IMG/VR virus record: IMGVR_UViG_3300028304_000465
Reading direction: 5' to 3' (one strand)
Origin: a virus
DNA: 64,000 bases
The notes under the pieces were generated by a model. It saw only the letters and a program-made list of their open reading frames with translations, had not been told where the DNA came from and searched no databases. The position numbers and the translations under genes are program-made. Below, piece after piece: positions 1,124 to 60,234 of this stretch (its first letter is position 1; the number at the start of each line of letters is the position of its first letter).

Positions 1124-1570
1124 TCACCGTCGCTCACCTCCCTCAATCCCGTCGACGAACTCCTCGGCGAGCGATTCCCACCCGCGCTTGTCGTCGACGT
1201 GCTCGATCCAGAGAGCGAGCACTTCGTCGTCGGCGATCGCCTGTCGGTGCTCGGGATCTGCGCCAGGCGCCTCGACGACATCGAGGACGCGCTCGCCGGC
1301 GAGGCCACGCCGGAGCAGGTGGTACGCGCCGCACTCGTCGCGACCGACTAACCGGTCGTAGCGGGTCACACACTCGATATCCAGCGCGGCGCCGAACGCC
1401 GGGCTCGGGTAGTCAGGGCCGACGAGCCGCGATCCACGTTCGTCGATTGCGACGACGGTCGCGAAGGTCTTCGCCGTGATCGAGCCGACCGAGCGGTCGA
1501 CGACGACCACGTCGCCAACTGAGAGATTTTCCGCGGCGACGCCATCGGGTGTGGTGGCGTCGACGCTCAT
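1124..1570 (-). CDS. hypothetical protein (~148 aa)
   Basis: Acidic ORF; ATG at 1570 overlaps the upstream stop. Confidence 0.65.
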   Translation of the reverse strand: MSVDATTPDGVAAENLSVGDVVVVDRSVGSITAKTFATVVAIDERGSRLVGPDYPSPAFGAALDIECVTRYDRLVGRDECGAYHLLRRGLAGERVLDVVEAPGADPEHRQAIADDEVLALWIEHVDDKRGWESLAEEFVDGIEGGERR

Positions 1571-2008: not shown

Positions 2009-3028
2009 ATGACAACGCTCGACCAAACTTCCCCCGAAGAAGCAGTACAGATGTACCTCAAGTACCGTGAACCAGAAATCAGTCAGACGACACTCTACGA
2101 ACACAAGTGCCGCCTTAACCGCTTTCTGGAGTGGTACGACCGCGACGACATGACCAAGATGACTCGGAAAGTCGCCGCGAAGTATCGCTTTTACCGAACC
2201 GATGAGGTCGCACCGACGACGCTGGAGAACGAGATTCGCACCTTCCGGCTGTTCATCCGATTCTGTGAGGACTTCGGATGTGTCCCTGAAGGTGTTGCAA
2301 AGCACATCGACGTGCCAACGGCGTCCAAGGACCATCGCTCCCGAGACGTGAGCCTTGAAGAGTCAGAGGCCGACGCTATCCTCGACTACCTCGGAGAGTA
2401 CCACTACGCTTCGTTCAAACACGTTCTCTTCCACCTGATGTGGAACGTTGGAGCGAGAATCGGTGGTGTCAGAGCGCTCGATGCAGGTGACTTCCGAGAG
2501 AGTCCCGACCCCGGCGTAGACGGGTGGTTCCTCGACTTCCAAGACCGCCCCGAGCAGGGGACACCGTTGAAAAATAAATGGAAGTCCGAGCGGAGAGTGC
2601 CAATCGGTGACACCCTCACTCAAACAATACAAGATTGGAAGGAGCATCATCGCCCCGATGTAGAGGACAATGAAGGGCGCAAACCGCTTCTTGCTACCGA
2701 ACAGGGCAGACCACACAAGACCACTATCCAGCGCCACATCTACGGGATGACGCGACCCTGTTGGTACGGCGCAGACTGTCCTGAAGAGCGCGACCCCGAT
2801 GAGTGTGAGGCCGCCGGGCCGAAGCAAGCCGCGTCGAAGTGCCCCGCGTCTCGCTCGCCTCATGCCCTTCGACGTGGTAGGGCAACAGCGAACCTCAACA
2901 AAGGGATGACGAAAGACATGACCAGCGAACGCATGGACATGTCTCGTGAAGTGCTTGACGAACACTACAATAAACAGACCGAGGAGGATAAGCGACGACT
3001 CCAGCGGAAGTTCCTTGACGGGGACTAA
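2009..3028 (+). CDS. int: tyrosine integrase (SNJ2-like haloarchaeal family)
   Basis: Catalytic R (GARIGG), HxxR (SPHALRRGR), Y (VLDEHY); N-terminal SAM-like domain; adjacent to tRNA fragment. Confidence 0.92.
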   Translation: MTTLDQTSPEEAVQMYLKYREPEISQTTLYEHKCRLNRFLEWYDRDDMTKMTRKVAAKYRFYRTDEVAPTTLENEIRTFRLFIRFCEDFGCVPEGVAKHIDVPTASKDHRSRDVSLEESEADAILDYLGEYHYASFKHVLFHLMWNVGARIGGVRALDAGDFRESPDPGVDGWFLDFQDRPEQGTPLKNKWKSERRVPIGDTLTQTIQDWKEHHRPDVEDNEGRKPLLATEQGRPHKTTIQRHIYGMTRPCWYGADCPEERDPDECEAAGPKQAASKCPASRSPHALRRGRATANLNKGMTKDMTSERMDMSREVLDEHYNKQTEEDKRRLQRKFLDGD

Positions 3029-4412: not shown

Positions 4413-4944
4413 CTATCGGTACGACCCCGCCGCCGCAGTGGGGACATGAACCGAGAGCGAGTATTGGCTTGCCAACGTTGCCACAGTTACAACACCGGGA
4501 CTTTACAGCATCTTCTGGAAGTAGGCCAGTCATGTTCCTGTTTCCAGAGTCCGGCCGCAACCCTCACAGGTAAACTGAGACTCGGCGTATTCGGCCATGA
4601 GCGTGTAACTCGCCCCTTTTCGCCAATTCCTGTGTTCACACTCCGTACAGATGATGCAGATTGCTTTCTGTTGGGACTCCTCTGCCTCTTGCTCGTCGGG
4701 GTGGTCGATGTCAACCATTCTTCGGATACTGTTCTTCGAGACGAATATTAGCGAGCGTTACATCAGCGTCTTTCTGGTTGTCAACAGTTTTGATAACCGA
4801 TGAGTCGTCGTGTTTTGCCTCGACGCAGAGGCGAACGTCGTAGCCCCGTTCTTCGAGTTTGTCCCGAAGAGCGAGGACTGTTTCTTCATCCATTGGTTCT
4901 GTTTCCCACGTATCCGCCGCTCTCGTTGCACGACGGTCATTCAT
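4372..4944 (-). CDS. three small overlapping ORFs (4372-4560 and 4530-4718 Zn-finger; 4711-4944 hypothetical)
   Basis: CCNCG/CPHCG; CTEC/CEGC; acidic; start-stop overlaps. Confidence 0.6.
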
Positions 4945-6565: not shown

Positions 6566-6651
6566 GGCGTAAGCACTCCCTCGTCACAAAGAGAGCAGTC
6601 AGTGCCTCGATTCCTTACATCGGTGTAACCGCAGTTTGTACAGGTGTTCAT
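6562..6651 (-). CDS. micro Zn-finger protein (29 aa)
   Basis: MNTCTNCGYTDVRNRGTDCSLCDEGVLTP; preceded by the GGGACACAACC leader; TGA overlaps the next ATG. Confidence 0.6.
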   Translation of the reverse strand: MNTCTNCGYTDVRNRGTDCSLCDEGVLTP

Positions 6652-6712
6652 GGTTGTGTCCCGCCTCGTTTGGCGGGGAGGCCGACGCCGGGGGATGACC
6701 CCGGGGCGAGCG

Positions 6713-7753: not shown

Positions 7754-9139
7754 CTACTCCGATTCTTCTGTTTCAGCAGTACCAGCAAGCATCGTCTGAA
7801 GTTCGTCACGGCGACTCTCGAACTCATCTCGTTGGTCAGACAAGTCTCGCTTGGCTTTTTCAACCTTTGCCTCGAAGGAGAACTCATCCAATTCTCCTTC
7901 TCCGCCCTCTCCATCCTCGCCAGTAGCCGCACGCCTCTGTCTCTCTGCCCGCTGTTGGGCGTTAGCGTCGATGGTTTCGAGGGCTTGGGTCGGGTTCATC
8001 ACGAAGTCGTTAGCGGTTTGCACGAGTTCGTTGAGACGGCTCGTGTTTTCTCCGCCTCGGTAGTGGTGAGTAATAGCGTAAGTTGCCCCGGAGTGAACCT
8101 CCCAACAGGTAGGTAAGAACTGGTTCTCGGCACGACTCCGAACGTGCGAGGCGGCTTCGCGGGCGAGGTAGGTCGGGAACCCCACCATCTCGAAGTACGC
8201 CTGAAGGTCGTCGGCGTGGTCGAGGACTTCGCTGAAGTTGAAGTCGAGGTAGTCCACCTCGATTTCACCAGCGGCCTCGATGAGTTCCGCGAGTTGATCC
8301 GTCATCAGGTCCATCTCGCAGAGAATGTCGTCCCACCACTCTCGGGTTTCCGAGGGGTCCCCGACGTGGCGTCGGGTCTTTTGATCTGTGATGTTCCGAA
8401 TCGAGTTGGAACACCATGTATCCTGACCGAAGCCCTCGGCGTAGAGTGCAGTCCCGCCGAAGTAGTCGTACCCCGTGCGGACACCGAGGAGGATGGGGTT
8501 CGAGGAGCCACCGTCTGCGGCTACCTGTTCGTCATCCTGCTCGCCGGGGTTGTCGATGCGGAACTTGTCGAACAACATCTCGATGTGGACCTCGCCACCA
8601 CCCTTGTACTTCTTGAGGGTGCCGAATACATGGTCCCCGAGGTCTTCGTCACGAATCGCCTCTTCGAGCGGTTCGTAGAAGTCCAGCGGCGACACTACGG
8701 CGTAGTCCGACGTGGGGTTGTGCCATAGGGCGTCGAGGAACTGCTCTTCCTCGTTTCGGTAGGTGCCCTGAATCCACTGTTCGAGCTTATCAGGGGAGAT
8801 GACCGACTGGAAGCGGTCAGTCTCCACGAACAGCGCACCGTCACGAGTTTGGTGGAGCGTGACCCCATCGGGGGCCTCTTCCTGTACCGCTTTCACATCG
8901 ATGCGCTTTGCCACCTTGTCGGGAACACGCCATGCGTTCCCGGTCGGCTCTGCACCTTCGAGGGAGCGAATTGCCGACGCGAGAGACGTATCAGGCATGT
9001 CGTCCGGGTAGATGCCTTCGTCCCGTGAGTGGTCCGACGTGGCGGCAGTTTCCGCCTTCTCAGAGAGCGTCACGTTGTTGTGGGTAGTCAGACCGGCGAA
9101 TTGTACGACTTCACACGGTTCCGTAGAGCGTCCGTACAT
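7754..9139 (-). CDS. DUF932-like phage/plasmid protein (461 aa)
   Basis: Pattern Y.VVSP.DF ... G...NxxxG..AL...G....WC.NS recalls DUF932; acidic coiled-coil tail. Confidence 0.6.
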   Translation of the reverse strand: MYGRSTEPCEVVQFAGLTTHNNVTLSEKAETAATSDHSRDEGIYPDDMPDTSLASAIRSLEGAEPTGNAWRVPDKVAKRIDVKAVQEEAPDGVTLHQTRDGALFVETDRFQSVISPDKLEQWIQGTYRNEEEQFLDALWHNPTSDYAVVSPLDFYEPLEEAIRDEDLGDHVFGTLKKYKGGGEVHIEMLFDKFRIDNPGEQDDEQVAADGGSSNPILLGVRTGYDYFGGTALYAEGFGQDTWCSNSIRNITDQKTRRHVGDPSETREWWDDILCEMDLMTDQLAELIEAAGEIEVDYLDFNFSEVLDHADDLQAYFEMVGFPTYLAREAASHVRSRAENQFLPTCWEVHSGATYAITHHYRGGENTSRLNELVQTANDFVMNPTQALETIDANAQQRAERQRRAATGEDGEGGEGELDEFSFEAKVEKAKRDLSDQRDEFESRRDELQTMLAGTAETEESE

Positions 9140-9259
9140 GGTTGGTTGTGTCCCGTCGTTACTTAGATCGAGCGCCCGACAGGTGGCGCAAAGCCTGCTT
9201 CGGGAGTCGAACCCGACGCACGCATTACGTTCTTGTAGTGCGCTCCCCTCGGAACAGAC
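9140..9259 (-). ncRNA. tRNA-like element plus pseudoknot leader cassette A
   Basis: 7-bp acceptor GTCTGTT/AGCAGGC, T-arm TCGGG-TTCGACT-CCCGA, then GCGCC-ACCTGTCG-GGCGC...CGACGGG-ACACAACCAACC-ATG. Confidence 0.7.
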
Positions 9260-9263
9260 ACAA

Positions 9264-9296
9264 TCAAAGAATAGATAGGCTAATCCTTAATTCTTT
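9264..9296 (-). promoter_or_regulatory. early promoter, class AAAGA(A/T)TTAA-N~12-TCTTTGA
   Basis: BRE/TATA-like AAAGAATTAAG about 27 nt upstream of the cassette A 5' end; same class at 11049, 16777, 18321, 19388, 60220. Confidence 0.7.
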
Positions 9297-9484
9297 GGGA
9301 TCGTTCTGAAAAATTTGCTCAGTCTCGTGAGAGTTTCAGCGAACCGGAACGTGTACGCAGTTCGTGTCGCAGGAGCGGCAGAACAGTGTCTTTCCCCACT
9401 CCGAGTTCTGTGCTTGTTCACGGGTGTCGTACCCTCTGTCGCTTAATTTCTCGAAGTCGCATTGGGTACAGAGATACATCGTTA

Positions 9485-9874
9485 TTACTCGATGCGTTCT
9501 CTGTTTTGGTTAATGAAGTTCAGTACCTTTTCAGGATCAGGAGCGCCGCCAGTTCGCTCCATCACCCGACCGAGGACTTCATGGTTGGACATGGCTTCTG
9601 GTGTTCCCTCCTCGAAGACCTCCTCGACCGATTCTGCAAAGTCAGGCATCTCTCGGTCGAACACCTCTTCGAGAGCGATGCGGTCCACGGTAGCCTGCGG
9701 AACATCGAGCCGTTCCGAGATGCTTGGCGTGTCCACATCAGGGATGTCGATTTCGATTTCCGAGTCGATACACAATTCGAAGGGGCCGAGGTCATCTGGT
9801 GCAGTCTTCCGCGACCGAACTGTTTCGTCTTTCCAGTCTACGATGAGGTAATAGTTGAGCGTTTTCGTTGTCAT
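9485..9874 (-). CDS. hypothetical protein (129 aa)
   Basis: Acidic ORF. Confidence 0.7.
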   Translation of the reverse strand: MTTKTLNYYLIVDWKDETVRSRKTAPDDLGPFELCIDSEIEIDIPDVDTPSISERLDVPQATVDRIALEEVFDREMPDFAESVEEVFEEGTPEAMSNHEVLGRVMERTGGAPDPEKVLNFINQNRERIE

Positions 9875-10041
9875 GGGTGTTGGCAGTTGTTGTTAGTGTG
9901 TCTTCTGACTGTTCTCTTGTCTCGCTCCATCATGAACGCAATTTCAGGTACACTGCGCCCACTCATATGGAGGTGTCTCATCGCCTCGCACTCGTGGTAT
10001 CCGACGTAGTTCTTCGCCCTTTCAGCGAAACTGCGGCTCAT
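9871..10041 (-). CDS. small HTH protein (56 aa)
   Basis: GRSVPEIAFMMERDKRTVRRH HTH-like. Confidence 0.6.
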   Translation of the reverse strand: MSRSFAERAKNYVGYHECEAMRHLHMSGRSVPEIAFMMERDKRTVRRHTNNNCQHP

Positions 10042-10499
10042 GCGTGAGCCTCGCTCCACTCGAAATACTCTGACCACCTTTCACGTAGAGATGGCTCAGA
10101 TTCTTTGCGCTTCTTCTGTTTGTTGAACTCTTCTACCATGTCCAATTTCTCGTTTGTCCATCGGTTTGACTGAAGCGCCGCCTCTCGGTCCCGAAGGTAC
10201 GGCCACGCGCTTACCACTACACGGTAGCCATCTACGTGGTAGCCAGCGATAAGCCAGTATTCTATGCCACCGAACCGCGACCAATGAAACGCGGCGCATC
10301 CATCTTTGTTATCCTTCAGATGTCCCTCACTGATGAGTCGTGCAATAACCTCACCATTAAGGAACCGCTCCGGCTCCTTCATTCGCTGAAGGAAGTGAAT
10401 GTGTAGATGGTACTTGTGGGGCTGGTGCGGGTAGTCCTGCTTACAGAACTCCCGTGACCTATCGAGGTCGATGCCACCCCCCTTTTCCCACTTGTTCAC
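10038..10499 (-). CDS. hypothetical protein (153 aa)
   Basis: Coupled ORF, aromatic-rich. Confidence 0.65.
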   Translation of the reverse strand: MNKWEKGGGIDLDRSREFCKQDYPHQPHKYHLHIHFLQRMKEPERFLNGEVIARLISEGHLKDNKDGCAAFHWSRFGGIEYWLIAGYHVDGYRVVVSAWPYLRDREAALQSNRWTNEKLDMVEEFNKQKKRKESEPSLRERWSEYFEWSEAHA

Positions 10500-10780
10500 A
10501 GTGGAATCACCCGTGCTTCCTTATCCAACATCGCCCGCTCGATGAGGCTACGAAGCACGATGCCCTCCGAAAGCGTGTCCTCGAACGCCGTGTCAGCGGC
10601 GAGTCCTTCCTCGCCCGGCGAGATGGAGACGCCGAGTTTGACTCGCTCGACGCCGTTACTGAACTCGATACGCGCCTCGTCGGGAACTTCATCGAGGTCC
10701 GTATGAGGGGATTCAGTGGCGTCTACGGTATGAGCGTAGAACGCTTCGACCGCATCGCTGAACTGCTGTACCCCACTCAT
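10496..10780 (-). CDS. hypothetical protein (94 aa)
   Basis: Acidic ORF; ATGA overlap. Confidence 0.65.
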   Translation of the reverse strand: MSGVQQFSDAVEAFYAHTVDATESPHTDLDEVPDEARIEFSNGVERVKLGVSISPGEEGLAADTAFEDTLSEGIVLRSLIERAMLDKEARVIPL

Positions 10781-10908
10781 CGGTTTAGTATCGCGTCGTG
10801 GTATCGGCCCATGATGGCACGCAGGTTAGTCGTGTTGTAGTTCTCGCGGATTCGGTCAACGTAACTTTTCTTTGCTTTCTCTCGAACGTTATTGGATACG
10901 TTTCTCAT
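10777..10908 (-). CDS. small basic protein (43 aa)
   Basis: MRNVSNNVREKAKKSYVDRIRENYNTTNLRAIMGRYHDAILNR; directly after cassette B leader. Confidence 0.55.
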   Translation of the reverse strand: MRNVSNNVREKAKKSYVDRIRENYNTTNLRAIMGRYHDAILNR

Positions 10909-11023
10909 GGTTGGTTGTGTCCCGCCGTGTTGCAGTCATCACGCCCGACAGGGTGGCGCTCAAGGAGGCCAGCATGGAATTGAACCATGCTTAGACCACT
11001 TGGCCCCGTAGGGTGTCCCTCCC
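10909..11023 (-). ncRNA. tRNA-like element plus pseudoknot leader cassette B
   Basis: GGAGG/CCTCC closing stem, T-arm AGCATGG-TTCAATT-CCATGCT, then AGCGCC-ACCCTGTCG-GGCGT...CGGCGGG-ACACAACCAACC-ATG; promoter at 11049-11058. Confidence 0.68.
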
Positions 11024-11085
11024 TATCAAACAATTGATCCGGAGAGGGTTAAATCTTTATGCCATAACCCGATGAGGGGGTTGTG

Positions 11086-11862
11086 TTATCGCTGACGAAG
11101 CTCCGCTACTAACTCCTCCACCTCATCGCGTTCTTCCTCGATGTCGCTCTGCGTTTCCTGATGGATGGGAGCGTTCGACGCGGCGTTCTTGATAGAGAGC
11201 CACCGCTCGAAGAACAACGCGAGATCGCGGTGGAGATCACGCGGAACCTCGTCTTCGAGGCCAGCTTGTCGGATGACGACAGGGATGGTGTCGCCGGAAC
11301 GACGCCGCCGCATGATCTTCTGGAGAATTTTGTTATCGAGTTCCAGCACTCCCTCGAAGTCGTCCTGATCCTCGAAGAAGACGAGTTCTTCTCCGAGGAC
11401 ACCGAAGTAGTCCACGAGCATTGCCAGTTCCACCACCCCGCAGTGACAGTAGGGACAGAACTCTGCTACCTCCGTGAGTTCGTCCGAGACGGAGAAGGCC
11501 GAGCGGATGTCGTGCTTACTATCGGAGTGTCCGTGGTTGAGGCCACACACCGGACACTCGAAGCCGCTAACCGAGGTCTGAGAAGTCATCTGTGCGGCCT
11601 CTTCGAGCAGTGCCTTCATTTCGCTGTCCACGTCTTCGTCCATTCCATCGAGGAGTCGGTCGAAGTCGTCCTCCGAAGGACCGCCGCCGGACGAGTGGTT
11701 GCCGAGGCCCCACCGCTGGATGTCGCGGCTGTCTTCGTTCACCTCGATAACGTTACCTCGTCCGTCGTCTCCCGCGAAGCGGTCACGGACGTTCTCTACG
11801 AAGTTGAAGCCGGTTTCTTCGCTCTGCGTCTCGTCGTTGCTCTCGTCGTTGATGTCGAACAT
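11086..11862 (-). CDS. acidic Zn-binding protein (258 aa)
   Basis: CPVCGLNH and CPYCHC motifs. Confidence 0.75.
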   Translation of the reverse strand: MFDINDESNDETQSEETGFNFVENVRDRFAGDDGRGNVIEVNEDSRDIQRWGLGNHSSGGGPSEDDFDRLLDGMDEDVDSEMKALLEEAAQMTSQTSVSGFECPVCGLNHGHSDSKHDIRSAFSVSDELTEVAEFCPYCHCGVVELAMLVDYFGVLGEELVFFEDQDDFEGVLELDNKILQKIMRRRRSGDTIPVVIRQAGLEDEVPRDLHRDLALFFERWLSIKNAASNAPIHQETQSDIEEERDEVEELVAELRQR

Positions 11863-11957
11863 CGGTTAGCTGTGTCCCGTCGTGATTTTATCATCACGCC
11901 CGACAGGTTGGCGCTTGAAGCCCCGGAGAGGAGTCGAACCTCCCTGCTCCTACGGGG
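11863..11957 (-). ncRNA. tRNA-like minihelix plus pseudoknot leader cassette C
   Basis: CCCCG/CGGGG stem, T-arm GGAGG-TTCGACT-CCTCT, then AGCGCC-AACCTGTCG-GGCGT...CGACGGG-ACACAGCTAACCG-ATG; starts right after the upstream stop codon. Confidence 0.68.
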
Positions 11958-13676
11958 TTAGAGGTTCTTTGCCTCTGCCGCAAGAATCATGATTCCCTGT
12001 GTTTTTTGCTTGAAGGGAGGATGACCCTCTCGCTCTTCCACTGCGTATTCGCTCTCATATCGCTCGTTGAAGAGGTCACGGACGGCGTGGGCGTTCTCCC
12101 TGCTGTCGAAGGCCGCCAACCCGTTTTTAGTCGAATCCTCGTTCCAGAGTTGGTAGTATATCATGACATTGAGGCGGTCTGAGGCTGGTTGTCCGGCTTC
12201 AGATGTTCCCACTCATACGGCTCGAAAGAGAGATTTCTCGGCGCGGCTTCTTTCTCGGTCCCCTCGACCACGGCGTCCACGTTGTTGAGTAGGCCGAGGT
12301 TCCGCATCTGTTGCTTGTTACACCCCCCTGAGTGGTGCCGCTCGTTGTCGGGGTTATACCACCCTCGGAAGCCTATCGTGAAGCCATCGGGGAAGCGGTA
12401 TCCGTAGACCGCATGACCGTAGGCTACGAGCATCGTTCCGCCCCACTCGTGTTCTTCGACTCTAACTCGTGAAGCCGAGCCGCGCGTGCTGTCCTCTCTC
12501 CACCGTCGTCCGAGTTCTGTGTAAGAGTAACTCATGTGTTTTCAACGGCCTTCTGTTTCGCATGATCGTCGTGTTTTGCTATCTTTAGGTGAACGAACCT
12601 ACCGAACAACCGAGCCGCGAATCCAACTAATTCTCGGAACTCAGACGAGTTCCGGTAGATGTCGAACATCGGTTCCTCGGGACTTGGGTGAACTGTGAGT
12701 CTGACTTCGTATCTCATGACTTAACGACCCCCGGTTTGATTGTTTGGCGCTTGTTTAATTGCCCACAGTGACCGGGCCACGAACTCCATCTCTGCGTCTG
12801 TCAGTCGGTACGTTTCACCATCGGCGGTGATGGTGCGGTTCTCGTTCCCCACATGGCTAAGGCTCATCTGATAGGCAGGCTCTGAAGAGCCTGCCCGAAC
12901 TGCGCTACCGGAGACTGTACGCGAGGTAGTCCCCGGATGAATGAACTCGTTGTCCCACGTCAGAAGCAAGTGGCCGTTGATGAGCCACCCATCATCACGC
13001 ATTTCGATACTATTTCCGAGGGCGGCGCTTTCACCGATGTAGTTCACGACTCTCTGTCGAACCACATTAGCTCGGAGCCTATCGTAGAGTCGGAGGAGCG
13101 GCGCTGGATTGCGTTCTCCATCATTTCCGTAGCAGTCCATGAGAGCATCCACCAACTCCGACTTCTGGTGTTCTCCGATGTGAAGTGGCTCCGTCTCGTC
13201 CACTTCCATCGTGTACTCCCGAGCGTCCTCACCGGGGATGAGGGTAACTCCTCGATCCTCACCGTCCAGTTGGAGGATTTCACTTCCGTCTCGAAGCACA
13301 CCCCACAGGCCGTGGTCGAAGAGCAGTCGGTTGAGGGGGGAGAGTGAGACGTTCTCAACACTCCCATCCTTGTGCTGTACCAGCATGTTCGTGTCCGTCT
13401 TGTCGAGGACTTTGTTGACGCTCATCGTTCTACCTCGGACCAGTTACCCCGAAGAACAACCTTGGTTGTGAAATGTGAGTCTTCTGGAAGTCCGCTTACG
13501 TAGTCCACTCTGTAAGGACGTATCTGCTCTACGTTGAACGGGACCGAACTGTACTCACTCAAGTACAGATGAATCTCGCTGTTACCACATGCTCGGACTG
13601 CATTATACTTCGTCTGTGATTGCAGGTACTCAACCGCTTGCCGTTGATGTTCGTTTGAGTAGGCTTCTTCAGTCAT
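11958..13676 (-). CDS. five hypothetical ORFs (11958-12212, 12161-12535, 12532-12717, 12721-13425, 13422-13676)
   Basis: Tightly coupled ORFs in the ORF track with plausible composition. Confidence 0.6.
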
Positions 13677-13680
13677 AGTT

Positions 13681-16479
13681 TTACCATGTGAGTTCGAGGC
13701 AGTTCGTAACGTTCGAGCGCAGTTCTTCGAGGTCAACCCCCTCGTCGGTGGGGTCGATACCTGCATCGTGAAGTGCGAGCAGAATCTCATTAATGCCGCC
13801 GCTGTTGTAGCTCTCCATCCAGTCGTACACGCCACTCTCGTTGTCCCACTTCGGCGTCTCTGCCTTCTGTTTGAGTTCACGCCGAGTGGAGCCACTGATT
13901 TTCGTTTCCGAGCCGGGGAAGCGAATGGGGATACGCTTCGTACTGAACCGAACAGTGAGCATTTCTCCGCTGTCAATATTGAGTAAGTGACTTCTGAAGG
14001 CGTAGGCGGCCCGCTCGAAGGTCCGAGAGTCGATGACACCTACTGTGAACTCGTCATCTTCGTTGAAAGAATAGGACAAGCTAAGTGCCTTCTTCGCGTA
14101 GAGGTTACGGAGTCGGATTGTCGTGTCGTCATCCTGAAGGAGACGCTTTTGCTTCTTCGATGTTGCGTAGAACAGCACGATCTTCTTGTTATGATTGGCC
14201 ATTTCCCCCACGGTGAGCGGTCCACCGGCCGTTGCTATAACCGTGTTTTCTGACCACTCCGTGAACTCTTCGTAGGTCATGACCCGAGGAGAGTCGATGA
14301 GAGCATCGTATTCATCGGTCGTGACCGACGTGATGGCGGCAAACCTCTGCATCGAGTAGTGGTCCGAGATGTTCTCATAGTCAGCCCCTCGGGGAAACAC
14401 TACGAAGAAGTTGTGACCGTCGATGGGATTCCCCGCCTCGATGCGGCCGTTGATCCTTTCAATAGTCCAACGATGGTCTATCTTCTTGTTCTGTGAGTTA
14501 GACCGAATCTTCAGTGTACTCTGTTCGAGAGAAGAGTTACTGCCGTCTCCCCCCTCATCGGTTTTGACAGTTTTGGTGTGTCTCTTGTGAATACTATCAG
14601 AAACGTCGAAGTCATGTTCATCACTCTGTTCCAACGGCACTTCTTTCAGGTAGCCGAACCCGAAGTGTTTCTCGTAGAAGTCGTACTCCGAAGCACTACC
14701 TAACACGATCACAGCGGCGTTGTCGTAGGTATCGTTTACAACTTGGTACTGATCCGTGAAGTTGCCTCCTGACGAGGCCGCCATGAACGTTTCATCGAGG
14801 TCGGCTTTAGCGAGGATGTTACCGAGCAGTTTCTCGGAGCGGCGCTTCTTCTTTGAGGGGTCGTGGGAGTCAGGGACAGCGTAGTCCACTTCCTCGAAGA
14901 GCTTTGCCACCTTCGCGCACATTCCGTCGTCCCAATCAGGCAGGTAGTCGCTATCCTGAAGGTAGTCCGTGATGTTATCCACGTCCATCGAGTAGGGGCC
15001 GTGGTAGTCCACCATACGGTAGAATACCACCCACTCGTCCTGATTGTCGTTCACCGCTATGGCGGGATGCTCTGCCTCCTCCATCTTCTCCGCAAAGACT
15101 CCTGCTTGTTTCTCTTCCTCGGCCTCCATCAACTTCGTTAGATACTGGAAGAACTGCTTGGCTTGACTGTCCTTCTGAAGCCTGTCACGATCTCCGGTTG
15201 GCTCGGGAAGCACGATGTCGTCCTCGTGGACCTCTGCGATGGCCTCTTCACGAGGATCGTCGGAGGGGTCTGCCACGACCATGCCGTCCTTGAAGTACAG
15301 CCCACGATGAGGGCCGTGGACAATACGGCGTTGTTCGTCGTGAATCTGAATTGCTGTATTCCAGAGCGACTTCACGTTGTGACCTGTATTGCGGTCGATT
15401 CGCATAGAGACGAGCCATGTATTTGGAGCCTTGTACGACGAAGCCACGTCAGGCCCGGCAACGATGCTGAACTCACCGGGACGGTCAACTTGGATGGGTG
15501 GGTTATTATGGTACTCTGCGATGTCGGTTCCTCCGTACTCTTCCTTCTCGATCACTCGACCGTTTTCGTGTTCGCGGTACAGCACCGGAACCCGAAGCAT
15601 CTCAGAGTACTTCGCCACCCAATCTTGGATGTTGTCGATGTTGATGCTATCCTGAATCGGAATCGTGAACCGAGTCCCTGTGAACTCTTCAGGGTCGAAC
15701 CCGTCGGGAGTTTCATCGAGTTCCTTCACACCACCGAGCTTGGCGTAGAAGTGGATACCCGAGGCATCCTTTGGTGTCTCGGGATTTACGCTTCGGGTTA
15801 GCACGTTCATGCCACCTTGCTTCCCCGTAATGTTACCGAAGGTCAGCGCTCCCATCCCCATCCGACCGCCCGTGTCGCCGTCCACGATGGCTCCGCTGTT
15901 AAGGGTCGTGTTGTAGGCTTCGACCACCTCACGGCCCGTCATGCCGATGCCGTTGTCCTCGGTCACGATCTCTCGCCCGTCTCGGTAGAGGTCGTAGGTG
16001 ATGGTGGGGTCGTACCCGATGTCTCGGGCCGCTTCGACCACAGCCGAGAGGGGTTGTGGAACCTCGATCTTCTTCAGGTCGCCCATGTCAGTTTCAGCCC
16101 ACTCCTGAAGCACCTTCTGTGGGTCGTCGTCATTCGTTACTGTTTCGCCAGTCTCGGCATGAACCCACATCGTTTGGGTGAGCGAATCAGCACCGTAGTC
16201 GGGGTGATTCCGGAGCAGGAACCGACACTTTCGAATACACGCTGTCTCGTGGTTCTGCTGGTGTTCTCGCGCCCATGCTTCGTCGCTGTCGTAAATCATG
16301 TCCGACAGCATCTCCGTAAGGCGTTCGTTGGAACTCACTTCACGCTCCACGAAGCCTGTTTCACCAGTATGCTCTTCAATCGCGCCTCCACTCTCCATCT
16401 CGAAGTCGGCGGTTCCGACGTTACCCTCTGCTTCTTCGATACGATTCGGCTCGGTCGTGTCCGGCAGGTTTTGACTCAT
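13681..16479 (-). CDS. GHKL (Hsp90/MutL-type) ATPase-domain protein, rIIA-like (932 aa)
   Basis: N-box AWAREHQQNHET, G1 TEDNGIGMT, G2 GRMGMGALT, G3 GTRFTIP. Confidence 0.75.
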   Translation of the reverse strand: MSQNLPDTTEPNRIEEAEGNVGTADFEMESGGAIEEHTGETGFVEREVSSNERLTEMLSDMIYDSDEAWAREHQQNHETACIRKCRFLLRNHPDYGADSLTQTMWVHAETGETVTNDDDPQKVLQEWAETDMGDLKKIEVPQPLSAVVEAARDIGYDPTITYDLYRDGREIVTEDNGIGMTGREVVEAYNTTLNSGAIVDGDTGGRMGMGALTFGNITGKQGGMNVLTRSVNPETPKDASGIHFYAKLGGVKELDETPDGFDPEEFTGTRFTIPIQDSINIDNIQDWVAKYSEMLRVPVLYREHENGRVIEKEEYGGTDIAEYHNNPPIQVDRPGEFSIVAGPDVASSYKAPNTWLVSMRIDRNTGHNVKSLWNTAIQIHDEQRRIVHGPHRGLYFKDGMVVADPSDDPREEAIAEVHEDDIVLPEPTGDRDRLQKDSQAKQFFQYLTKLMEAEEEKQAGVFAEKMEEAEHPAIAVNDNQDEWVVFYRMVDYHGPYSMDVDNITDYLQDSDYLPDWDDGMCAKVAKLFEEVDYAVPDSHDPSKKKRRSEKLLGNILAKADLDETFMAASSGGNFTDQYQVVNDTYDNAAVIVLGSASEYDFYEKHFGFGYLKEVPLEQSDEHDFDVSDSIHKRHTKTVKTDEGGDGSNSSLEQSTLKIRSNSQNKKIDHRWTIERINGRIEAGNPIDGHNFFVVFPRGADYENISDHYSMQRFAAITSVTTDEYDALIDSPRVMTYEEFTEWSENTVIATAGGPLTVGEMANHNKKIVLFYATSKKQKRLLQDDDTTIRLRNLYAKKALSLSYSFNEDDEFTVGVIDSRTFERAAYAFRSHLLNIDSGEMLTVRFSTKRIPIRFPGSETKISGSTRRELKQKAETPKWDNESGVYDWMESYNSGGINEILLALHDAGIDPTDEGVDLEELRSNVTNCLELTW

Positions 16480-16505
16480 GTTTGCCTCGGTAGGTTGTGT
16501 TCGTA

Positions 16506-16649: not shown

Positions 16650-16873
16650 GTTTGCCTCGGTTGGTTGTGCGCCTTGGGCATCTTCCGACGGTGGTGAACC
16701 GTCTTCGAGGCGGGGGCGGCGACCTCCCCGCGAGGGGTGTGTACCCCTTTCGCCCTGAAAGACAAGTCGCACCGTGTTAATTCTTTGGGTTCTATGCTGA
16801 AGTCCTATCCGGCGCTCGTTCGTAGGTTGCTTCCTCGATGATGCCAGCGTGATATTGAGAGTAAACTTATTGT

Positions 16874-18265
16874 TTAACTCCACGTCTCGTGTTTTTCCGC
16901 GATGTGTTCGTTTCCGTCGTACTCTTCGATGGTGAACTCCACGCCGTCAGGAATTTCGACCACCTTTAGCGACGACGTTCGGGTGTTTACGTCTTCTCCA
17001 AGTGCTTTCACACAGTCGATGAGGTCGGGGTTCTGCCGAAGTTCGATGTTCCGGTGGGTGTCATCGACAAGGCGATAACGACTCCCGCGAGTTTTCCCAT
17101 ACTTGGAACTTTGGCTATCCACGAGTTCAGCGTTTGGGTCGGCTATACTACCGTTATCGTACTCCGTTACTTTCCAGTCACGGTTCTCAATTAGCCACTT
17201 GCCCGCTTCGGTACTAATTCCAAAACCACCGAAGCAGTTGTTGATGACTACTTCAGTCATCGCTTTCCTCCGGCTCGAACTTCATCACGATGCGCTCTTC
17301 TTCGTAGTCGTCATCGAGTTGCCACACGTCAGCTACGCGAAGGCCGACTTCCTCGGCGGCCTCGATGACCTTGAAGGTCATTCCCTTTCGGGGAACAGAA
17401 ACCCGAAGATAGCTTGGGTCACGGCGGTTCAGTTCAGGATTGTTCACGATGGGCCTCGACCGACTTCCGTCAGGGTGAAGCCATTCGTGGGAGGTGACAA
17501 TTGCGTGCGTTGCCTCGACATAGTTCTCAATCCGTTGTTCGGGTTGGGTTGCGCTCATGTTAGATTACCTTGAACTCGTAGCCGTTTCGCCACACGTTCT
17601 GTTTCTCGACACTCATCTCGACTGTTCCCTCGAAAATGGCGATGGTATAGCGGTCGCCGTGAATCTCTTTCACGACACCATCGACCATCTCGCCCGGATT
17701 GACACGGGCCAGTACCTCTTCGCCTTCTTGAATCGTTTTGATGCTCATGATACCCGCTCCGAAGGGTTCCGCCGATTACCGGCGTGAACGATTATCTTCG
17801 CGTTCACCCAATTCTCGAACTCGACAGGCTCCGTTTTGCTTGTCAGGAGAAAGGCATCTCCTAACTGCTCACCGTAAACCTCAGCCCGAACCACATCACC
17901 CTCCCTGCTGAAGAGGATGCCTTCGATCCGTACTACGTCGTCGCCGTTTCGATTCCAGAGGTTCTTTGCACGGTTCCGTTGTCCACTGTCGAGGGGGCCG
18001 TCCATTTCGGGCATCAGGCCACCCCATACTGCTTGTCCTTCGCTTCAAGCCAGTCCAGAAGGCCCGTGAAGTTCTCATCGGTCACACGGAACCGACCCCC
18101 TCGCTGGAGGCCACCCTGCGTGACCACCACAGAGCTGTTAACGCGGTGAAGGATGAAATCACGCCACGCTACTGCCTCGAAGTGGCCGTCAACGAGGCCC
18201 GCCACGAGGCCGATCTCTTGTTCGTCCGTTGCGTCGTCAATCCGTGAGACGTTGGTTTCCGTCAT
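16874..18265 (-). CDS. five small ORFs (16874-17260, 17253-17558, 17560-17748, 17745-18014, 18014-18265)
   Basis: Coupled acidic ORFs; 16874-17260 starts with the phage-common VINNCFGGFG motif; the operon starts at a GGGACACAACC leader. Confidence 0.65.
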
Positions 18266-18338
18266 GGTTGTGTCCCGCATGGTTGGTGCCTTACTGTCGT
18301 CAAAGACGGTCATCGGCGTATTAATTCCTTGAGCGATA

Positions 18339-19290
18339 CTACGGCGGCGACCCGGCTCGGTCGTACCTCTCGTTCAGTTCACGAAGGGTCAGTTCGTCGT
18401 TGTAGGTGTTCCCCGTGAAGGGCATCTTGATGCGACCCTCGATGATGCTGTCACCATCATTCGGGATGACCACCTCATCGACGGCAAGGGGTTCATCAAT
18501 CGAGGCCAGTCCATCCACGATGAACTGCTCACACTCACCTTCGGCCTCGAACTCTCCGAGCCATGTCTCTCCGATGCGAAGCCTCATGGTTTACACCGAT
18601 GAGGTGGGTTCCGCAATATTGTTGATAGCCCTCCCTATAGCCTCGAACTCTGCCTGTCCATCCTTACAGCCGAAGGAGTGACCCCATACTACTGTCTCCC
18701 ACGTCGGTTCTTCGAGGTTGTAGAGCAGTATCTCGGCACACTTCACTTTCTCCTCGAAGTGATGGATGTCAGGAAGCACCTCCTGATAGGCTTCGGGATC
18801 GCCCATCTTCTCCACCTCATCGGGGTCAGCAAGTTTCTGGACTTCCTCGAACACTTCGAGGGTGACTTCCGCGCCGTTCAACAGTTCCGAAGGCAGTTTG
18901 AACTCACTCATGATTAGCCCCACGTTAGGTCTACTTCATCGTTCGCTCTGGTCGGTTCAACATCCGAGAGGATGTGCGCTTCTTCGTGGCGGTCCACCCT
19001 CTTACCCTTCTTACGCTGGTTTACAGCCTCGGTTACGCTGGAGGCATGGTCGCCGTCGTAGTCGTTGAAGTTCGAGCGATGGTCCCACTCGTTTTCCTCA
19101 CTCATAGGGCAACCTCTTCGTCCCACATCGCTACTTCCGCCGGGGTTTTCGGCTGTGCTTCGAGATCGCGGTGCCGCTCCTCGCGGTGTTCGCCGCCGTC
19201 TGCCTGCGTCCCTGAAAACATGGGGTCGATGGTGAACTCGGGTTCATCTTCGCGCTGTTCTTCAATCGGGACCGCCGCGATTTCATACAT
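18339..19290 (-). CDS. four small ORFs (18339-18587, 18591-18911, 18914-19105, 19102-19290)
   Basis: Acidic coupled ORFs downstream of promoter at 19388. Confidence 0.62.
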
Positions 19291-19320
19291 GGTCTTACCT
19301 CACCTTGCACTGCACCACAA

Positions 19321-19367
19321 GCCGAGCAGGGGGCGCGATCCCCTCGGAGTCGCTAACTCACTCGGTC
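19321..19367 (-). ncRNA. mini tRNA-like element D
   Basis: CCGAGT/GCTCGG stem, GAGT-TAGCG-ACTC hairpin, AGGGG-ATCGCGC-CCCCT T-like arm; begins at the expected TSS. Confidence 0.5.
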
Positions 19368-20642: not shown

Positions 20643-21524
20643 TTACAGAAGGTCGCCGCAGGCCGTACAGAAGTGGACCACGTCGATACCCGGAAGGCCT
20701 TCGGCCAACTTCACGTCACTCGAAGGGTGGTCGCACTCGTTGATAGCCTCGATGCGCTCTGCTTCGCTATCGTAGGAGGGGAGGGACAGGGTTCGCGGGT
20801 CGTGAATCTCGGGCGTAGCGCTCATGCCTCGACCCCTTCCAGCGCCGCTTCAACTTCTTCGTCGGTCGGAACTACACTCACGCTAAAGTTCGTGAGCGTT
20901 TCTTCGCGTTCGTCCATCGCTCCGGGGATGTAGAACTCGAACTCGGTTTTCATCCCTTCGAGGCGACCCCCTTCGCGCTGGTCGAGCGTAACTTCGACGT
21001 GACCGGGAGCGCCTTCAACGTCTGCGTCTCCATAGACCGTCATGGAGACGATGTTCTTGTGAAAGAACTCGTCTCCAGCGGCGGCCAGCATCTTTCGCGT
21101 TTCCTGTGTGTTCATCTGCGGTTCGCTCTCGATGGAAAGGGTGATGTCACTCATGTTAGAATTCTCCGTGGGGGCTTTCCTCTTCGTGCTTTGCGGCGTT
21201 CCGAATCGCTCGAATTTGCGCTCGCTTTGCTTCCCACTCTATGTGGTTCACGGGGTTCACGACTGCTTCGGTGGTGTGGTCGGCCATCTCTTGCGCTTTG
21301 CGCTCCTTGTAGCGCAGGAAGGGGAAGAACGAGAACGGACCCCCTCGAAGGGCCTCTTCGAGCGTCCGTCCGATAACGAGTTCAGCCGTACACTCTCCGA
21401 GAATCAGTTTCGCTTCAGCCGCTTCGAGCGCTCCCGAAACTTCGTCCTCGATGAACTTCAGGGGGTTGATGTGATCCGCGTATTTCTTGGGAGTAACGTG
21501 GGAACCGTCGTAGGTTTTCGCCAT
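20643..21524 (-). CDS. three ORFs (20643-20825 with CTAC, 20822-21154, 21156-21524)
   Basis: Coupled acidic ORFs. Confidence 0.65.
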
Positions 21525-21525
21525 C

Positions 21526-21698
21526 TTAGCCCCACTCCTCGATGGTGTCCTCGTCTTTGTCTTTCAGGGCCAGCCGCCCTTCGACGCCCGCCGCTTCGTT
21601 TAAGGGGACCTTCATCGGCCACCCCGTCGCCGCGCTTCACGTTCGTAAACTGTCTCGACCCTCGTGCTACCCTTATAGGTAGTCAAAAATCCCTTCAT
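21526..21698 (-). CDS. two micro-ORFs (21612-21698, 28 aa; 21526-21615, 29 aa)
   Basis: MKGFLTTYKGSTRVETVYEREARRRGGR follows the GGGACACAACCT leader; MKVPLNEAAG...EEWG is coupled by an ATGA overlap. Confidence 0.45.
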
Positions 21699-21699
21699 A

Positions 21700-22742
21700 G
21701 GTTGTGTCCCGCCACTTTCGCAGGCGGCGTCTCGCACGCTCTTTAACCCGAGCGTGAAGGGTCGTCAGGGGCGCTTCTCACTAACCACGCGAAGCGCCCT
21801 TACTGACGTGACCGCGAAGGGTTCGTTGTCAGGATGCGGGTCGTCATTACTCGTGAGCGTGCTTCCCGGTCGCGGTCGTCGTGAAGGACGACCACTTAGG
21901 GGATTTACACGCCGTTACGCCATTTGTAAGCGAGTTCCTTCATGTCGCTAACTGCCTTCCGAAGCAGGATTCAACAGAGGGTGTCACGCTGTATCGCTCG
22001 CATCCACGCCTTCTCCGAAGGCCGGTCGCCCGGTTGGTCTTGTGAAGCACGCTTCGTCGCGTCGATTTCCGTGGCGGGAGCTTGCCGTGACCCGGTGGTG
22101 TCATGGGATTCCAATCGTCGGTCGGCCTTCGTCGGGTCATCGAGAGCGCTTCGGAACCCTGCGGGGGGTCGCTCTCTCGCCTTCCATCCTTCGGTCGATT
22201 CACTTCTTCCGCTCCCTTAAGGGAGGCTCACCGTGAGGCTCGACTACCCTTTCAGGTGGGGGGATTAGTGCGTCATTAGCGTCTGCGTTTCTCCCCTATG
22301 GGTCCGTTCAAGCCCTTCTCGGTTGTAGCCTCGAAGGGGGAACACCCCTGAAGGGGCTTGACGGAGGGGCAGACGCGCTTTCACATCCACGCTTTGTGTG
22401 CGCTTCGACATAGCCCGAAGGCCGCGACGTGGCGTACTGAAGATGATGCGTTGGGGGATAGGGTCGAACTTGGCGCGGGGGTTCGCGCCTTTAGATATTC
22501 GGCGGTTCTTCACCACGAATCACGTTTTAATACGCGATTCCAAACGAACCGTCCCGTCAATTGGCCCCCCTTACCCCGGTCTGACGCACACGTTTTTAAT
22601 TCGCGTGTGGCCCGTTTAACGAGTACCGAGGGGCCTCCCATCACCTTTCGCGCCTTTAATGACGCAAAGCGCCTCCGTTCGGGGCGTGGCGGGGAACACC
22701 CGGCGAGACAGATTCCGTCTCGCGCCCCGAGTGAGGTATCAT
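21700..22742 (-). ncRNA. candidate ~1-kb structured non-coding RNA or giant 5' leader
   Basis: No acidic ORF; dense hairpins whose G-U pairs and GAAA loops favour the minus strand; TATA TTTAAGTA at 22760-22767. Confidence 0.6.
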
Positions 22743-34389: not shown

Positions 34390-34773
34390 ATGGTCGCCCG
34401 AGATATCTCCGCCTACATCGAGCGCATCGGCGGGCAACTCGTCACGGTCTACGAGCGTTCTGCTGAATCCGTAGACGAGTTTAACAACACCGAATGGGGT
34501 TTTGACGATGACCTCGACGGTGATGGTGAACCAACAGAGGCGCTTTGTGCCCGAACCTACCCAAACCGCAATACCGAGGCTGAAGGGGTCGAGGGCGACC
34601 GAAAACAAGACGTTCCACTATTCATGTTTCCACTCGATGAGTGGGAGAAAGTTGGCCCTAATGCCCGTATTGGTTACACAGAACACAACGGGTCGGAGAC
34701 GGTGTACGAACTGAAGTCACCGACGAGGTGGCCGACCCACGTCGAAGTGTTTGCTGAAGAAGTCGTCAATTAA
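34390..34773 (+). CDS. head closure/stopper protein (putative)
   Basis: Position; beta-rich, 127 aa. Confidence 0.55.
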   Translation: MVARDISAYIERIGGQLVTVYERSAESVDEFNNTEWGFDDDLDGDGEPTEALCARTYPNRNTEAEGVEGDRKQDVPLFMFPLDEWEKVGPNARIGYTEHNGSETVYELKSPTRWPTHVEVFAEEVVN

Positions 34774-54485: not shown

Positions 54486-55055
54486 TTAACTCGATAAGAC
54501 TTCTTCTTTGGCCGCGCTCCAACTACTAAATCTTTCATACATTGTAGTCATGCTTGGTTCATTAGTTCTCCACTTTTCGTATGAGCGCACCGTTGGCTCT
54601 TCTCCGTTCTCGAATACATACTTTCTAATTGCTTCTTTACACTCTTTTTTTGTAACTCCACGATGTTTCATCTTATGTTCTGATCCTGTAAGGGGCTTCA
54701 AGTTCTCCGGTCTATTGTCTAATAGATTGCCATTCTTATGGTGTACTTCTTTGTCCTTTACCTCTTCAAAACCATACTCCGCGACCGCGATAAGTCTATG
54801 AATGCTAACGCATTTTCGACCCTCTTTAGCGGATACGCTAAATTGTGAATATTCACGTCTACTTAGATTTCCCAAAGAAAAATGACCATGTTTCTTTTTG
54901 CATGGTTTTGATCTTTCAATTCCAAACTTCTTCATCCAATAGCGAGCAGTTGAACCAGAACAACCTAATTCATCTCCAACATCTCTTGTGGACTGTAATC
55001 TCCCATATGCTTTACGGAGCTTTTCCTCATCTCGCCACGGTTTCTCTTCGCTCAT
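54486..55055 (-). CDS. HNH homing endonuclease with N-terminal HTH and C-terminal helical repeat
   Basis: HRLIA...VHHKNGNLLDNRPENL....SEH..KH. Confidence 0.88.
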   Translation of the reverse strand: MSEEKPWRDEEKLRKAYGRLQSTRDVGDELGCSGSTARYWMKKFGIERSKPCKKKHGHFSLGNLSRREYSQFSVSAKEGRKCVSIHRLIAVAEYGFEEVKDKEVHHKNGNLLDNRPENLKPLTGSEHKMKHRGVTKKECKEAIRKYVFENGEEPTVRSYEKWRTNEPSMTTMYERFSSWSAAKEEVLSS

Positions 55056-59402: not shown

Positions 59403-60130
59403 GGTGAACTCCCACAGTGACGCCTTCTTTGTAGTTGATTACGTGCTTCTCCAGCAGGTCGCAGTCCTGACAGTCGTACCGGATGTTTCCCTGTTTCCGC
59501 GAGATGCGGAGCAACAGGTCGCCGCCGCACTCTGGACACCAGACCCGGACCTCTCCGGGGTCAACTACTTGGTTCATCAGTTGCCGACCTCGACAGAATC
59601 TCGAACCCACTCTTCAAGATCGTCAACTGACACTTTTCGTCCCGTAACTGTCTCTCCACGCACATCCCCGGTATGGACAGTGGATTGCTCCAACACCGTG
59701 AACGGAACATGATAGACGAAGTTCTCACCGAGGATGTAGAGCCGTTTGTCCGCAGAGTCCAGCACTTCGTCAGCCTGTTTCTCGGGGACAACGAAGTGAG
59801 TCACCGCAGGGTTCTCACGGATGTTCGGAATTTCCTCTGCTTTCAGAACCAGCGAGTCTTTACCATATCGGGTGTCCCGAGCGTTGAAACCGAGGACGAT
59901 AGCCGGATCGTTTGGGTGTGAGAGCGTGGTCCGCAGTCGGATATGGGGTGTAGCGTTAGCACTCATGGTTACTCGGTCTGCACCGCGATTTCTTCCTTGA
60001 TGTCGTTGATGCGCTCTGCCGACGCAGGGGTCCAGCGTAGGGAGTCGCCCTTGTTGACCGCCTGCGTGTTTTGCTCCAGTACAAAGAGTAACGTTTCGAC
60101 GTTTTCCGCTTCGAGGCTAATTTCCTGCAT
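59395..60130 (-). CDS. three small ORFs (59395-59577 Zn-finger, 59577-59966, 59969-60130)
   Basis: CPECG...CQDC; coupled ORFs under the promoter at 60220. Confidence 0.6.
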
Positions 60131-60234
60131 GGTTAGGTTGTGTCGGCGGATGCCGTCGCCCCCGGCAGGACACCAGAGGCGATTCCGACTCCGTGACACT
60201 AAAGAAGAACCGACAGGAGTTAATTCTTTCGGGA

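Follow-up and report, generated by a model that had tools for sequence, protein, structure and literature searches.

A leader RNA motif with pseudoknot potential downstream of t-element-like folds in haloarchaeal tailed viruses

The module at three start codons and in related viruses

What lies between a tRNA-like fold and the start codon of a viral gene, and can this segment fold into a pseudoknot? The question is raised by a 64,000-nt stretch of viral DNA (IMG/VR record IMGVR_UViG_3300028304_000465; hereafter the window, to whose full length all positions refer), in which three minus-strand sites, A, B and C, carry the same short module between a t-element-like minihelix (tRNA-like acceptor stem plus T-arm) and an ATG. 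The module comprises a GC-rich stem (P1), a loop that can pair with a G-rich tail (P2), the connecting segments L1, L2 and L3, and a short leader motif. The motif is genuine: it is conserved, belongs to the sense-strand RNA and has the potential to fold into a pseudoknot.

Module A spans 9137-9192 (-). Its P1 stem GCGCC/GGCGC (5′ strand 9189-9185, 3′ strand 9176-9172) encloses a one-nucleotide L1 (A, 9184) and the 5′ strand of P2 (CCTGTCG, 9183-9177); there follow a 13-nt L3 (9171-9159), the 3′ strand of P2 (CGACGGG, 9158-9152), the leader ACACAACCAACC (9151-9140) and the ATG (9139-9137). Module B (10906-10962, -) has P1 GCGCC/GGCGT with a terminal G·U pair (10959-10955 and 10945-10941), L1 AC (10954-10953), P2 CCTGTCG/CGGCGGG (10952-10946 and 10927-10921), a 13-nt L3 (10940-10928), the leader ACACAACCAACC (10920-10909) and the ATG (10908-10906). 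Module C (11860-11917, -) combines P1 GCGCC/GGCGT (11914-11910 and 11900-11896), L1 AA (11909-11908), P2 CCTGTCG/CGACGGG (11907-11901 and 11882-11876) and a 13-nt L3 (11895-11883) with a variant leader, ACACAGCTAACCG (11875-11863), before the ATG (11862-11860). At all three sites the P1 loop is 8-9 nt long and contains CCTGTCG, which complements the tail CG(A/G)CGGG over 7 bp, one or two of them G·U; the 3′ end of P2 adjoins ACACA(A/G)C..ATG, and P1 starts 2-4 nt past the predicted discriminator and 3-5 nt past the acceptor strand of the minihelix. An earlier note on this DNA had described P1 as GCGCC/GGCG(C/T) around the loop CCTGTCG, with P2 formed by CG(A/G)CGGG, 3-5 nt after each element, and all three sites indeed read so; its claim that the A/G change keeps the pairing also holds, as U-A in A and C and U·G in B.

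Real open reading frames (ORFs) of 461, 43 and 258 aa begin at the ATGs of A, B and C, respectively. The 18-nt pattern formed by P1 plus its loop is expected by chance 0.03 times in the window; two exact matches were found, and A differs from them by an L1 that is 1 nt shorter. The three modules are paralogous copies and do not represent three independent observations. UGAUGA within L3 of B, C and the copy of the uncultured contig uv138 was considered as a C-box or K-turn and rejected, there being no matching D box.

The conservation proposed in the earlier note extends well beyond the window. Pattern scans together with reading of orthologous regions yielded 11 distinct copies in at least 8 viruses: the three of the window, one copy common to HSTV-2, HRTV-2, HRTV-7 and HRTV-11 before gene 90/91/93, a one-base variant of it in HCTV-6, a second HRTV-7 copy before a DUF932 gene, and five copies in four uncultured contigs of ~72 kb. 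A T-arm scan places a T-arm minihelix directly 5′ of the module in 11/11 copies, and the module was found in 0/23 related leader sites without a T-arm, so that adjacency to the t-element-like fold is strict. Between copies, the t-elements and the L3 linkers are nearly unrelated, while the leader, P1 and both strands of P2 are conserved. Among the matches listed in pattern scans of metagenome and genome contigs, one was genuine, a uv128 duplicate, and the others were due to chance, which gives no estimate of abundance. T-loop-anchored scans of viral contigs added only uv138, and blastn of the module against phage records returned HRTV-7 only. A search anchored on the DUF932-like protein found no locus with a single sequence and three loci with an alignment, none of which carries the module.

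In HRTV-7, the mini-tRNA and the end of an inserted LAGLIDADG gene overlap, and the module and the DUF932 gene follow with no promoter between; the HSTV-2 copy comes after the stop codon of gene 91. Since these copies sit between cistrons, the module is tied to the t-element and not to a promoter. The HRTV-7 arrangement fits a processing site inside a polycistronic RNA.

At its 3′ end, the module always runs into a leader containing ACACAACC. We define this leader family as a G-rich tail followed by ACACAACC, located 0-16 nt before the ATG of an early-arm gene. Together, the window and its relatives have 43 distinct sites with the GGGACACAACC leader in this position, which makes it far commoner than the module; the module is one variant of a wider leader of the type structure, GGGACACAACC, ATG.

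Pairing of loop and tail, and competing explanations

Compact H-type pseudoknots were scanned using ViennaRNA stacking energies, allowing an L1 of 1-3 nt and an L2 of 0-1 nt, and compared with 300 dinucleotide shuffles. The combination of P1 and P2 is the best compact solution in 11/11 copies (z from -3.4 to -8.8; 0-1/300 shuffles equal), and for A, B and C individually 0/300 shuffles match the native sequence; the pseudoknot-capable folding that the earlier note had called for is thus in favor of its P1 plus P2. The geometry suits an H-type fold, in which L1 has to cross the deep groove of stem 2 and L3 the shallow groove of stem 1: there is an L1 of 1-2 nt for a stem 2 of 4-7 bp, an L2 of 0-1 nt, and an L3 of 9-15 nt for a stem 1 of 4-7 bp. 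L3 is rich in A (47% versus 27% in the surrounding strand). At the level of sequence, six copies have a loop that complements the 3′ tail over 7 bp, and the other five reach 3-5 bp. Where P2 has 7 bp, standard pairs occupy 72/72 cells, compared with 33-47% when the partners are slid, and the five variable positions switch only among C-G, U·G and U-A. G·U accounts for 10/72 pair cells; the helices are therefore intact only in the sense strand, which points to an element acting at the RNA level. When the loop is permuted with P1 fixed, equal pairing with the tail arises in 0.8% (A), 5% (B) and 0.15% (C) of the trials, with p between 0.0015 and 0.05 across the six 7-bp copies. Furthermore, the uv128 and uv131a copies have the tail GTGGG and the loop CCAC/CCCAC, i.e., a change from G-C to A-U at P2 position 4, and position 5 shows a U-A / U·G / C-G series once the uncultured copies are added. 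P2 was scored with an anchored script, MAFFT and covariance-model alignments of all copies having misplaced the short loops. Taken as a stem on its own, P1 very probably forms; for the complete P1 plus P2 pseudoknot in the three leaders of the window, we consider the case evenly balanced.

Several observations weigh against the pseudoknot and the processing scheme built upon it. Covariation leaves the P2 proposed in the earlier note unproven: the six 7-bp copies contain no double-sided change and 342/500 column shuffles score equally, compensatory changes at two positions appear only once the uncultured copies with a short P2 are included, and P1 varies only to G·U. Because the copies share ancestry, their conservation could reflect sequence-specific recognition as well as pairing. 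Among the five uncultured copies, P2 spans 3-5 bp and does no better than permuted loops (p 0.12-0.59). The loop limits of the pseudoknot scan were set after the data were seen, and the nested folding of short segments is unremarkable (z -0.24, +1.24 and -2.23). Over the 43 leader sites, base-pair probabilities show GGG paired (~0.84) and ACACAA open (~0.19), and shuffling the upstream 66 nt reproduces this profile (GGG paired 0.84 versus 0.86); therefore, the pattern is compositional and no evidence of design. Orthologous genes of HSTV-2 have a simple hairpin in place of the module, from which it follows that the pseudoknot is not essential to the leader. No riboswitch, exonuclease-resistant RNA (xrRNA) or tRNA family of Rfam was detected in the whole window at gathering score, or in 9100-12050 at E <= 10. 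Finally, neither ARAGORN nor the Rfam tRNA model called any of the t-element-like folds A, B and C, as expected for tRNA mimics that lack arms.

A second fold overlaps the module at two sites. The earlier note had suggested that a CGTG/CACG hairpin competes with the 3′ strand of P1 and may act as a switch. The hairpin is present, with 4 bp in B and 6 bp (CGTGAT/ATCACG) within L3 in C, but the switch is not supported, as the hairpin is absent from A and from all 8 copies of the relatives; it looks like a local accident of the B and C paralogues. In A, and only there among the pseudoknot copies, TTGTGTC at the 5′ end of the leader pairs with the GACACAA of the leader motif in the full-length minimum free energy structure.

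Four other explanations, taken here in order of decreasing weight, bear on these data. The first is that only the P1 GC hairpin forms, together with local hairpins such as that of C, and that the complementarity between loop and tail is a by-product of a C-rich loop facing an invariant GGG, extended by descent in one clade. RNAfold indeed gives just P1 in the HSTV-2, HRTV-7, uv045 and uv128 copies, composition by itself predicts that GGG is paired, P2 is short (3-5 bp) and at chance level in 5/11 copies, and the 7-bp clade lacks double-sided covariation. On the other hand, a mere by-product would have to accommodate seven contiguous pairs that survive five substitutions, each of them pair-preserving, as well as the low loop-permutation p values (0.0015-0.05), L1 and L2 lengths that suit a coaxial H-type fold in 11/11 copies, and the G-C to A-U replacement at P2 position 4 in uv128 and uv131a. 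We regard the hairpin alone as a rather unlikely account, though one to be taken seriously. Alternatively, an RNA-binding factor of viral or host origin, for instance a nuclease or a translational regulator, could read the conserved blocks (GCGCCA.., GGCG and GGGACACAACC) by sequence, the helices being secondary. The P1 stem is near-invariant over all copies, and the leader motif is specific to the virus group: HF2, which belongs to a sister genus and also infects Halorubrum, uses another motif before the ATG, which would favor a reader specific to the virus over the host ribosome. However, the loop length (6-9 nt) and the P2 strands vary while their complementarity is kept, and no candidate factor was identified; recognition of this kind appears improbable.

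The module might also act in the DNA, as an operator or inverted repeat, as part of a promoter with L3 as TATA box, or as a recombination junction for cassette shuffling similar to the promoter-stem-loops (PeSL) of T4-type phages and HGTV-1. Orthologous genes do carry differing leader variants, the homing-endonuclease cassette of HRTV-7 is bounded by the module, and PeSL-like motifs have been reported in HGTV-1 (PMC3950731). Yet the G·U pairs would be A/C mismatches on the opposite strand, the inverted repeat is not constant in its spacing (a variation of 3 nt), and the module always has the orientation of its gene. L3 as a TATA box is ruled out by its distance to the ATG: the A-rich stretch lies, variably, 16-29 nt before it, and a start ~26 nt downstream would fall in the ORF. 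Altogether, a DNA-level element seems very unlikely. The weakest alternative is a ligand-sensing riboswitch or an xrRNA of a described class. It is suggested by an apparent likeness of the H-type fold, with its A-rich L3 and its tail beside the start site, to small pseudoknot riboswitches, and of the pairing between loop and 3′ tail to small plant-virus xrRNAs; against it stand the lack of Rfam families noted above, the occurrence of three copies per genome before unrelated genes, the missing three-way junction and the non-conserved switch hairpin, which together leave it with hardly any probability.

Flanking elements, leader family and genomic setting

The folds upstream of the modules display the hallmarks of t-elements, namely 7-nt T-loops (TTCGACT, TTCAATT and TTCGACT in A, B and C) that are closed by a G-C pair and flanked by acceptor-like stems of 5-7 bp. 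Fold A (9192-9259, -), located by reading and T-arm scan, has the acceptor-like stem GTCTGTT/AGCAGGC and a canonical T-arm, TCGGG-TTCGACT-CCCGA. Minihelix B (10964-11007, -) is built of the acceptor GGGGCCA/TGGCCTC and the T-arm GCATGG-TTCAATT-CCATGC and has no anticodon arm, and minihelix C (11919-11958, -) consists of the acceptor CCCCG/CGGGG and the T-arm GGAGG-TTCGACT-CCTCT. ARAGORN found no transfer-messenger RNA arrangement in the window; the acceptor stem closes locally, upstream of the pseudoknot. A reading of GCGCC-A-CC as a tRNA 3′ end (discriminator plus CCA) was rejected, its distance from the acceptor stem being 2-5 nt too large. A fourth, promoter-proximal t-element-like fold at 19291-19367 (-) is followed by a Shine-Dalgarno-like box (GGTGAGG) and an ATG; because it has neither P1/P2 nor ACACAACC, t-element, module and leader are separable. 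Elsewhere in the window, the sole ARAGORN call (15994-16087, +), a 'tRNA-???' with a 4-base anticodon antisense in an HSP90-like gene, is probably a false positive. In the uv128 t-element (4521-4560, -), the T-arm/acceptor part matches the 3′ portion of Salinibacter phage tRNA-Ala genes with 88% identity over 40 nt.

Upstream of folds A and B there is an inverted-repeat motif, AAAGA(A/T)TTAA ... TT(C/G)TTTGA. Before A, this promoter-like intergenic repeat occupies 9261-9298 (-), with AAAGAATTAA and, ~25 nt later, TTCTTTGA, the flanks forming the inverted repeat; it recurs before B (~11047-11058) and at 16.8, 18.3, 19.4 and 60.2 kb, before genes of the same arm. The repeat may act as a promoter, its layout resembling that of the class I intergenic-repeat promoters mapped in HF2 (PMC8707807). 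In a halite metatranscriptome run, short contigs cover the region at ~2-3x in 200-nt pieces; they hold no start or end information and are neutral on processing. One of the contigs spans the promoter region of B.

In the window, the genes preceded by GGGACACAACC are all minus-strand members of the non-structural arm (6.6, 9.1, 10.9, 11.9, 18.3 and 21.7 kb), CACAACC variants of the leader occur at 16.5, 16.7 and 60.1 kb, and neither form was found before the plus-strand structural genes. The leader sites of either type that lack the P1 module are at 6648-6662, 18262-18276, 21696-21710, 16489-16503, 16659-16673 and 60130-60150 (all -), 0-13 nt before the ATG. Two of them form simple-hairpin leaders: at 6648-6700 (-), CCCGCC/GGCGGG precedes ACACAACC-ATG in an intercistronic gap, and at 21696-21740 (-), CCGCC/GGCGG precedes GACACAACCT-ATG. 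A simple hairpin with GGCGG(G) at the end of its 3′ arm is indeed present at most leader sites. Among the DUF932 orthologues, those of HRTV-7 and the window carry the pseudoknot-type module and that of HSTV-2 the plain hairpin; module and plain hairpin are therefore interchangeable. We found no description of the module or of the GGGACACAACC leader in the literature, where papers on HF2-type viruses cover intergenic-repeat promoters.

Further structures were noticed near these leaders. In the uncultured relatives L396, L397 and L406, a two-part hairpin, CCG(C/T)C..[5 bp]-AGCG(A)-[5 bp]..GGCGG, lies ~45 nt before the leader, and its inner helix shows compensatory changes (CAGTC/GACTG versus CGGTG/CACCG), making it a second conserved leader RNA structure. 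An upstream GGTGTCC(C) complements the leader GGGACAC in the window (60150-60180, -) and in the same three relatives near 1440-1500 (-), and could, judging from this complementarity, sequester the leader motif in a long hairpin. In HSTV-2 (~12400-12436), GGTGTC pairs with GGGATAC via G·U, and the same GGTGTC is the 3′ acceptor strand of the t-element. Finally, a block (T)GA(C/T)GATGCCCACGGC(T/C), which is C-box-like (UGAUGA), is found 3-6 nt before the leader in the uncultured relatives L131 (two sites), L405 and L410.

The genes around the modules lie on the minus strand and have strong PHROG matches and no Pfam matches. The 461-aa ORF after A is DUF932-like, being 65% identical to the DUF932-annotated protein of HSTV-2, HRTV-2, HRTV-7, HRTV-11, HCTV-6 and HCTV-15, all of the genus Mincapvirus (Hafunaviridae), and the 43-aa ORF after B heads a small operon. 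The large terminase shares 54% identity with Mincapvirus proteins and ~45% with those of HF1/HF2-type viruses, and parts of the window are present in halite metagenome DNA runs. Judged by its sequence, the window is from an uncultured haloarchaeal tailed virus, a relative of Mincapvirus at about genus level. It also encodes a family B DNA polymerase of 1198 aa (55055-58651, -) that matches an intein splicing domain weakly, with 27.9 bits against a cutoff of 35.8. The GC content is 0.64 in positions 1-2000 and ~0.53 thereafter, a shift that adjoins a weak integrase-family ORF (2009-3028, +) and is possibly a provirus/host junction or a contig end.

Proposed role and known systems

How could such a module serve the virus? 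We propose that Mincapvirus-like tailed viruses of haloarchaea carry it as a cis-acting RNA in the 5′ leaders of their early and middle genes. The leader would read, in order, an inverted-repeat-type promoter or an upstream cistron, the t-element (acceptor plus T-arm minihelix), a spacer of 0-4 nt, the GC-clamp hairpin P1, the A-rich linker, the G-rich tail, a single-stranded ACACAACC leader of 9-13 nt and the AUG. With its 7 bp in the window and the cultured Mincapviruses, the pairing of P1 loop and tail would produce a compact, coaxially stacked H-type pseudoknot. A cut by host tRNase Z at the 3′ side of the t-element would turn P1/P2 into the 5′-terminal fold of a 5′-monophosphate mRNA, with 0-4 unpaired nt ahead of it. 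This fold may then shield the 5′ end from 5′-to-3′ exonucleases of the aRNase J / aCPSF2 type, and may insulate the short, unstructured, C/A-rich leader, which lacks a Shine-Dalgarno (SD) sequence, and its AUG from pairing with upstream sequences. The scheme presumes that the element is transcribed through and cleaved, that the pseudoknot forms in vivo and that it affects stability or translation; the combined role that we favor, protection of the processed 5′ end plus insulation of an SD-less initiation region, is put forward tentatively, as plausible though short of probable. Exonuclease blocking, ribosome recruitment and ligand sensing, the roles considered in the earlier note, are hypothetical for this module.

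The closest parallel is provided by the t-elements of Haloferax volcanii, found in the 5S rRNA leader and in 5′ untranslated regions of mRNAs, which are cut by RNase P and tRNase Z and release a downstream product with a 5′-phosphate (PMC4326828). Likewise, an acceptor plus T-arm minihelix is embedded here in a longer transcript, and the downstream RNA is predicted to start just past the discriminator with a 5′-phosphate. This analogy agrees with the idea of the earlier note that cleavage, presumed for the viral element, leaves the module as the new 5′ end. The viral elements differ in lying at or near the transcript start or between cistrons and in being followed by a conserved hairpin or pseudoknot. 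HF2 (Haloferacalesvirus; PMC8707807), of the same family, has a similar succession of promoter, processing element, short conserved motif and ATG. However, its processing elements are real tRNAs or, before the helicase gene, a hammerhead ribozyme; it has neither the GCGCC/GGCGC module nor GGGACACAACC, and its pre-ATG motif is ACCAGAGA-like, (A/G)ACCAGAGA(G)A being found after tRNA-Arg, tRNA-Tyr, IR4 and the annotated hammerhead ribozyme (18584-18631, 20898-20981, 34536-34575 and 10360-10373).

With the classical H-type pseudoknots of viral frameshift sites, telomerase-type RNAs and small riboswitches, the module shares the topology, the short L1, an L2 that is missing or nearly so and the A-rich L3; by analogy, the latter could lie in the minor groove of the GC-rich stem 1. 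Unlike them, it is located in a 5′ leader, 9-13 nt before the AUG, with no slippery site and no ligand or frameshift context. Bacterial 5′ stabilizers are stable structures near the mRNA 5′ end; their hairpins, and viral exonuclease-resistant RNAs, resemble the module in placing such a structure within ~4 nt of the (here predicted) processed 5′ end, but the module lacks the ring-forming three-way junction of the latter, and its presumed enemy is a beta-CASP 5′-3′ exonuclease. Xrn1 is not known from archaea. In outline, the succession of a processing element, a hairpin and an open initiation region also recalls synthetic insulators of the RiboJ type, which make expression independent of the upstream sequence, whereas the viral module is natural and archaeal, has a putative cleavage by host tRNA enzymes and has no Shine-Dalgarno sequence. 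The module thus combines known kinds of element, a leader structure linked to a t-element and an H-type pseudoknot.

In haloarchaea, leadered mRNAs are translated independently of Shine-Dalgarno pairing, in a way not yet understood, and a conserved, structured viral leader before start codons would be a compact handle on this mode of initiation; cultured viruses with the module (HSTV-2, HRTV-7 and HCTV-6) grow on Halorubrum and Haloarcula. It would likewise help to study the shaping of viral mRNAs by the tRNA-processing enzymes of archaeal hosts. A bolder extension, to which we attach a low probability, is that t-element, pseudoknot and ACACAACC make up a natural expression cassette: host tRNA enzymes would cut the viral transcripts into mRNAs with a protective pseudoknot, whose SD-less, virus-specific leader would be read by the SD-free initiation of haloarchaea or by a viral factor steering ribosomes to viral messages. 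Should the hairpin alone be what counts, the module would add modestly to the known set of halovirus intergenic motifs. A pseudoknot that does protect processed 5′ ends would give archaea their first described equivalent of 5′ stabilizers or exonuclease-resistant RNAs, and haloarchaeal genetics a ready-made insulator part.

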